From a virus (Duplodnaviria > Heunggongvirae > Uroviricota > Caudoviricetes), in IMG/VR virus record IMGVR_UViG_3300030250_000013: a stretch of 54,876 nucleotides of DNA. One strand, written 5' to 3'. This document shows, piece by piece, positions 1 to 99 of the stretch (position 1 is its first letter; the number at the start of each line of letters is the position of its first letter). The position numbers and the translations under genes were made by a program. The notes beneath the pieces were generated by a model, which was not told where the DNA came from, ran no database searches, and saw only the letters and a program-made list of their open reading frames with translations.

Positions 1-99
1 GGTATCAGACAGCTTGCGAAGGGAGTTAATGTTAGCCATTTGTGTTTAGCCTCATGTGTGTTAACTGAGGCTAATTATCGGGGAGGTTTGGTAATCTGT
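1..99. repeat. terminal segment identical to 54778-54876 (99 bp)
   Basis: Direct comparison of the first and last lines of the window; contains the 5' end of the ParB-like gene and its leader. Confidence 0.9.

Follow-up and report, generated by a model that had tools for sequence, protein, structure and literature searches.

The stretch of DNA analysed here, called the window in what follows, is 54,876 nucleotides long, does not contain any N, and begins and ends with the same 99 bases; the genes closest to its two ends are a SLOG/YAcAr-family gene and a ParB-like gene, both read from the minus strand (Table 1). The identity between the ends is exact, and no prefix longer than 99 bases matches a suffix: the bases flanking the two copies differ at once, CAAG... 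being found past copy 1 and ...TTATC ahead of copy 2. In a search of the whole window allowing up to three mismatches, the 99-mer was recovered at the two terminal sites only, and no match was obtained in 100 dinucleotide-preserving shuffles; the terminal pair was also found by an independent repeat search, as a family (D6) with a spacing of 54,777. An exact terminal match, together with the absence of matches in the shuffled sequences, indicates that the observation is real and not the result of chance. The preliminary description of this DNA, which reported that the window ends are identical over 99 bp, was thus correct, since the match is exact, cannot be extended and occurs nowhere else.

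The repeat had also been described as cutting through a gene, and the start of the ParB-like ORF does lie within copy 2. The ATG corresponds to position 39 of the repeat, which contains the first 13 codons of the gene (positions 1-39, minus strand), the SD, the -10 hexamer and one half of the -35 hexamer; as a consequence, the 13 codons are duplicated in the window. Orthologues of the ParB-like gene are annotated in the phages Solent, PDP46 and Bas82, and the record of phage AVIO78A carries an annotated promoter at the position equivalent to the sigma-70-like promoter that precedes the gene in the window. This promoter is a member of a 13-copy family, TAAAATAATTCTTGAC, and the edge of the repeat, at position 99, falls within its -35 hexamer (97-102). 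According to the preliminary description, both the SD and the promoter would become contiguous with the ORF only when the ends are joined; this holds for the -35 hexamer, the only element that is cut by the window end (TGT/CAA) and that needs the join, but not for the SD GAGG (54827-54830) and the -10 hexamer (54851-54856), which are already contiguous with the ORF within copy 2. In the joined window the SLOG gene becomes the upstream neighbour of the ParB-like gene, from which it is separated by a 71-nt spacer.

Table 1. Position of the terminal repeat, of the genes at the join, of the packaging and head genes and of other repeated sequences in the window
Feature	Position	Strand	Remarks
Terminal repeat, copy 1 (almost certainly assembler overlap)	1-99		exact identity with 54778-54876
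Terminal repeat, copy 2 (almost certainly assembler overlap)	54778-54876		removal gives the 54,777-bp unit genome
Sigma-70-like promoter of the ParB-like gene	74-102	-	TTGACA-N17-GATAAT; 11/12 consensus positions
SLOG/YAcAr-family gene	111-506	-	Pfam YAcAr, E=1e-19
Major capsid protein (sets capsid capacity)	29066-30085	-	PHROG 1005; 94.7% aa identity to 9NA gp40
Portal protein (headful sensor)	39335-40690	-	PHROG 113; 96.5% aa identity to 9NA gp22
Large terminase	42381-44144	-	PHROG terminase large subunit; determines packaging mode
Small terminase, 211-aa form	48661-49296	-	ORF extendable to 49413
ParB-like gene, 255 aa	54049-54816	-	PHROG 1033 ParB-like, E=3e-60; Pfam HTH_ParB, 28 bits
TAAAATAATTCTTGAC, copies 1-7	98-113, 1642-1657, 6948-6963, 7012-7027, 32567-32582, 32871-32886, 36768-36783
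TAAAATAATTCTTGAC, copies 8-13	38540-38555, 40762-40777, 44210-44225, 45980-45995, 47594-47609, 48082-48097
100-nt direct repeat	32665-32764, 49577-49676		90% identical
Hairpin-like motif CTAATACAGAACGTGTATTAG	32778-32811, 32841-32874, 49710-49743		two to three copies
Tandem repeat, 21 bp x 4.6	50400-50496		within ORF 49809-50621 (+)
Tandem repeat, 30 bp x 2.7	9615-9694
Tandem repeat, 21 bp x 2.4	32286-32336

Comparison by megablast with a phage collection assigned the window to the 9NA/Sasha group of siphoviruses (Nonanavirus/Sashavirus). In the matched parts, nucleotide identity is 92-96% with Solent, 536P12, BDX09P1, PDP46, PJ16, AVIO78A and Bas82; Solent is a Salmonella phage, 536P12 and BDX09P1 are Sashavirus members, and PDP46, PJ16, AVIO78A and Bas82 are Escherichia phages. 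The identity of 9NA itself with the window is ~80-84% at the nucleotide level. The phage belongs to a known genus, of which it represents a new isolate or variant. Once one copy of the repeat is removed, the reverse complement of the remaining 54,777 bp can be aligned collinearly, as a circular permutation, with the Solent genome (55,978 bp) in its entirety: position 1 of Solent corresponds to window position 49653, from which the alignment descends to window position 121, then it resumes at 54777 and descends to 49781, equivalent to Solent 55788. This circular collinearity over the entire genome indicates that the window is one complete genome, opened at another place and on the opposite strand with respect to its relatives. 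Whole-genome synteny is a feature that the window shares with the 9NA/Sasha/Sergei/Solent group, and circular assembly is common to the window and 9NA, whereas the differences from the 9NA/Sasha group are of a mosaic type and concern small accessory genes.

The joined intergenic region between the ParB-like and SLOG genes (window 100-120 / 54810-54820) is a mosaic hotspot among the relatives. Solent has an HNH endonuclease here and AVIO78A a NADAR-like gene, while in PDP46, Bas82 and the ENA contig ERZ1035001.837 the ParB start is immediately preceded by a 231-bp gene; the window, which lacks both the HNH endonuclease and the extra 231-bp gene, has the shortest version of the spacer. Downstream of the ParB-like gene, a segment of ~185 bp (~53868-54052) is 96-97% identical to many Stx2-converting lambdoid phages and to RCS47, and this segment (992-1176 of a 4-kb junction query) is the source of most of the 196 matched records. 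The match suggests that a small gene (DUF2737-like region) was recently exchanged with temperate coliphages.

To examine the join, the window ends were fused so as to retain the 99-mer once, and the product was aligned to the relatives. The alignments of Solent, AVIO78A, BDX09P1 and 9NA are unbroken over all 99 bp and for 13-16 bp past them, and 536P12 covers the join in one HSP. In Solent the 99-mer is present as a single internal copy (53248-53346, 99% identical), far from the ends of the record, which was itself checked for an end repeat and has none; the records of the relatives open ~5 kb away from the window ends, next to the small terminase gene. The same continuity was observed in four independent metagenome assemblies, in all of which the exact ParB-like protein is encoded: ENA ERZ1745275 NODE_1550 (13.8 kb), Logan SRR1929408 (5.3 kb) and Logan SRR1929485 (1.8 kb) are all 100% identical across the join, and JGI 3300014770 (39.6 kb) has 0 mismatches across it, with one unrelated 19-bp indel elsewhere. 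The 99-mer is single copy in each of these join-spanning contigs (4/4), all four have the 71-nt SLOG-ParB spacer of the joined window, and none (0/4) ends at a repeat edge. The proposal in the preliminary description that the sequence is best read as a 54,777-bp unit is therefore borne out, since the single-copy join is continuous both in isolates and in independent metagenome assemblies.

Apart from its indel, the JGI contig is identical to the window over 16.4 kb. The difference is a single 19-bp insertion, TTTTGACTTTCCATTACAC, at ~53890, just downstream of the ParB-like gene, and it changes a small ORF present there from 62 to 65 aa. A change of copy number in a 21-bp tandem array was considered as the origin of this 19-base difference and was rejected, the difference being a single 19-bp indel at ~53890.

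The packaging machinery of the window closely resembles that of 9NA. The large terminase has 96.3% aminoacid identity with 9NA gp11 over 587/587 residues, and likewise with the Solent large terminase; it also gives a weak match, below cutoff, to Pfam Terminase_6N (T4-type). The small terminase shows 94% aminoacid identity with its annotated counterpart in Solent and 86.8% with 9NA gp1. For 9NA, a terminal redundancy of ~13% is said to have been given by Zeng et al. in 2019. The 59 kb of packaged DNA listed for this phage against a genome of 52,869 bp (PMC10681747, Table 1) agree with that figure. [quoted passage not shown] 2019 (PMC8954984).

By analogy with 9NA, the present phage would also use pac-site headful packaging, and its pac region is likely to lie within or close to the small terminase gene, at a distance of ~5.5 kb from the ends of the window. 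The sequence of events proposed here is based on 9NA and on the general knowledge of pac-type phages such as P22 and SPP1. Replication would yield concatemers, which the small and the large terminase would first cut at ~48.6-49.7 kb of the window, within or close to the gene of the small terminase; heads would then be filled processively with ~59 kb each, producing linear, circularly permuted virion DNA with a redundancy of approximately 59 - 54.8 kb, i.e., ~4 kb (~8%). The redundancy expected here would be smaller than the ~6 kb of 9NA because the genome is longer. With headful packaging of the 9NA type, no fixed virion end would be expected at the window boundary, and reads from such a permuted population would assemble into a cycle.

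A de Bruijn graph assembler with a final k of presumably 99 would have met this cyclic path and broken it at an arbitrary place, writing the same k-mer at both ends of the contig. This behaviour is well documented: among the 751,567 DTR contigs considered in the CheckV paper (Nayfach et al. 2021), DTR lengths concentrate at 55, 77 and 99 bp (PMC8116208, Extended Data Fig. 3), and the cause given by its authors is that assemblers break circular templates at a random location, leaving a repeat of length k, while DTRs are said there to be possibly biological too (PMC8116208). Similarly, the methods of COBRA describe end sequences of maxK length, with lists of k for both metaSPAdes and MEGAHIT that end in 99 (PMC10914622). 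The length of the present repeat is hence a k value in use by common assemblers. The breakpoint is arbitrary, as one edge is found 39 nt into the ParB-like ORF and the other splits the -35 TTGACA. The window shares with the k-mer-length DTRs of CheckV an exact and strictly terminal repeat, the peak length of 99 and a breakpoint devoid of meaning, and no difference from contigs of this type could be detected; an end overlap of k-mer length is also what COBRA uses to call a contig "self_circular". Since the length fits k, the location is arbitrary and the packaging machinery is that of a known headful packager, the 99-bp identity is best explained as an assembly artefact on the 54,777-bp circular map of a 9NA/Sasha-like virulent siphovirus, a reading to which we assign a probability of about 0.95. 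The repeat is almost certainly not a biological feature, but a textbook case of the k-mer overlap that a circular contig can carry.

Two other explanations were weighed against this one. A genuine 99-bp DTR, with fixed virion ends at window positions 1 and 54876 and a packaging mode of the T7-like or another short-DTR type, would have the same look, because a short-DTR genome, when assembled with a k larger than the repeat, also shows exact direct repeats at its two ends; in this case an assembler with k > 99 would have recovered the linear molecule including both copies. The contigs that cross the join could also come from concatemers formed during the replication of a DTR phage with fixed ends, and continuity alone is hence not decisive against a real repeat. 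However, the likeness to short-DTR phages is superficial, being limited to a linear sequence that begins and ends with the same short repeat in direct orientation. Phages with short exact DTRs, such as the T7-like ones, have repeats of roughly 150-250 bp, and the length found here matches a standard k exactly. A real DTR would begin inside a coding sequence and finish inside a -35 hexamer: the repeat holds 13 ParB codons and bisects a promoter, and in the relatives, which have no such ends, it is internal and single copy; natural genome ends typically lie in non-coding DNA and recur as ends among related phages. Moreover, the nearest characterised large terminase is that of the headful packager 9NA, and a real DTR would need a change of packaging mode despite a 96%-identical terminase. 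The Solent record lacks an end repeat, the records of the relatives open beside the small terminase gene, and four assemblies, one of them of 39.6 kb, bridge the join without any of them stopping at the repeat edge. On these grounds a genuine terminal repeat is scarcely credible, and even harder to conceive is its most specific form, a Sashavirus with real fixed ends and a 99-bp DTR placed in the ParB-like gene and its promoter, i.e., a packaging switch with the terminase left nearly unchanged. The preference for an assembly overlap over a real short repeat, already expressed in the preliminary description, is in agreement with the length, the breakpoint, the continuity of the join and the 9NA-like terminase.

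The overlap would remain an artefact if the sequenced molecule were a covalently closed circle in place of linear permuted virion DNA, maintained as the plasmid-like episome of a phage-plasmid that uses the ParB-like protein. A ParB-like gene is indeed present, and a circular assembly fits a circular replicon equally well; the protein, however, matches the HTH_ParB domain only, and weakly (28 bits), and no ParA gene is adjacent to it. In the full annotation of the collinear Solent genome there is no integrase, ParA, plasmid Rep or repressor, and the phages of the 9NA group are described as virulent and without lysogeny genes (PMC4153490; PMC10612097). In addition, the terminase, portal and capsid module of the window is complete and has its orthologue in a headful packager. 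The phage-plasmid reading was therefore rejected, given the lack of ParA, Rep and integrase in the collinear annotated relative and the virulence of the group, and it is considered highly improbable.

With the repeat read as an assembly overlap, the duplicated 99 bp should be trimmed and the genome treated as a 54,777-bp circular map, preferably reopened at ~49.65 kb of the window (minus strand), ahead of the small terminase gene, in line with the GenBank records of the relatives. In the annotation, the ParB-like gene and its promoter should form one contiguous region with the SLOG gene. The completeness of the genome is certified by the terminal repeat, which does not add anything new on the biology of the phage, because the packaging mode of the 9NA/Sasha group has already been published.

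The promoter family to which the ParB-like promoter belongs deserves a separate description. TAAAATAATTCTTGAC occurs in the window in 13 copies with at most one mismatch, compared to ~0.05 expected by chance, and consists of an A/T-rich, UP-like tract fused to the -35 sequence TTGAC, often followed by GnATTAC. The copies are found on both strands, at the head of the alternating transcription units, and the one at 98-113 is that cut by the window end. The set represents a conserved phage promoter family.

Two divergent intergenic regions of ~390 bp, which precede the head-gene operon and the small terminase gene, respectively, have in common the 100-nt direct repeat and the hairpin-like motif CTAATACAGAACGTGTATTAG; the GenBank records of Solent, Sasha and 9NA open inside the second of these regions. 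The two may possibly represent a shared late-regulatory region. For the copy of the 100-nt repeat that precedes the small terminase gene, a function related to pac is less likely, given that the head operon is preceded by a second copy.

Finally, three perfect tandem repeats are found in frame inside ORFs, and those at 50400-50496 and 9615-9694 encode related stretches rich in Ala, Pro and Val.
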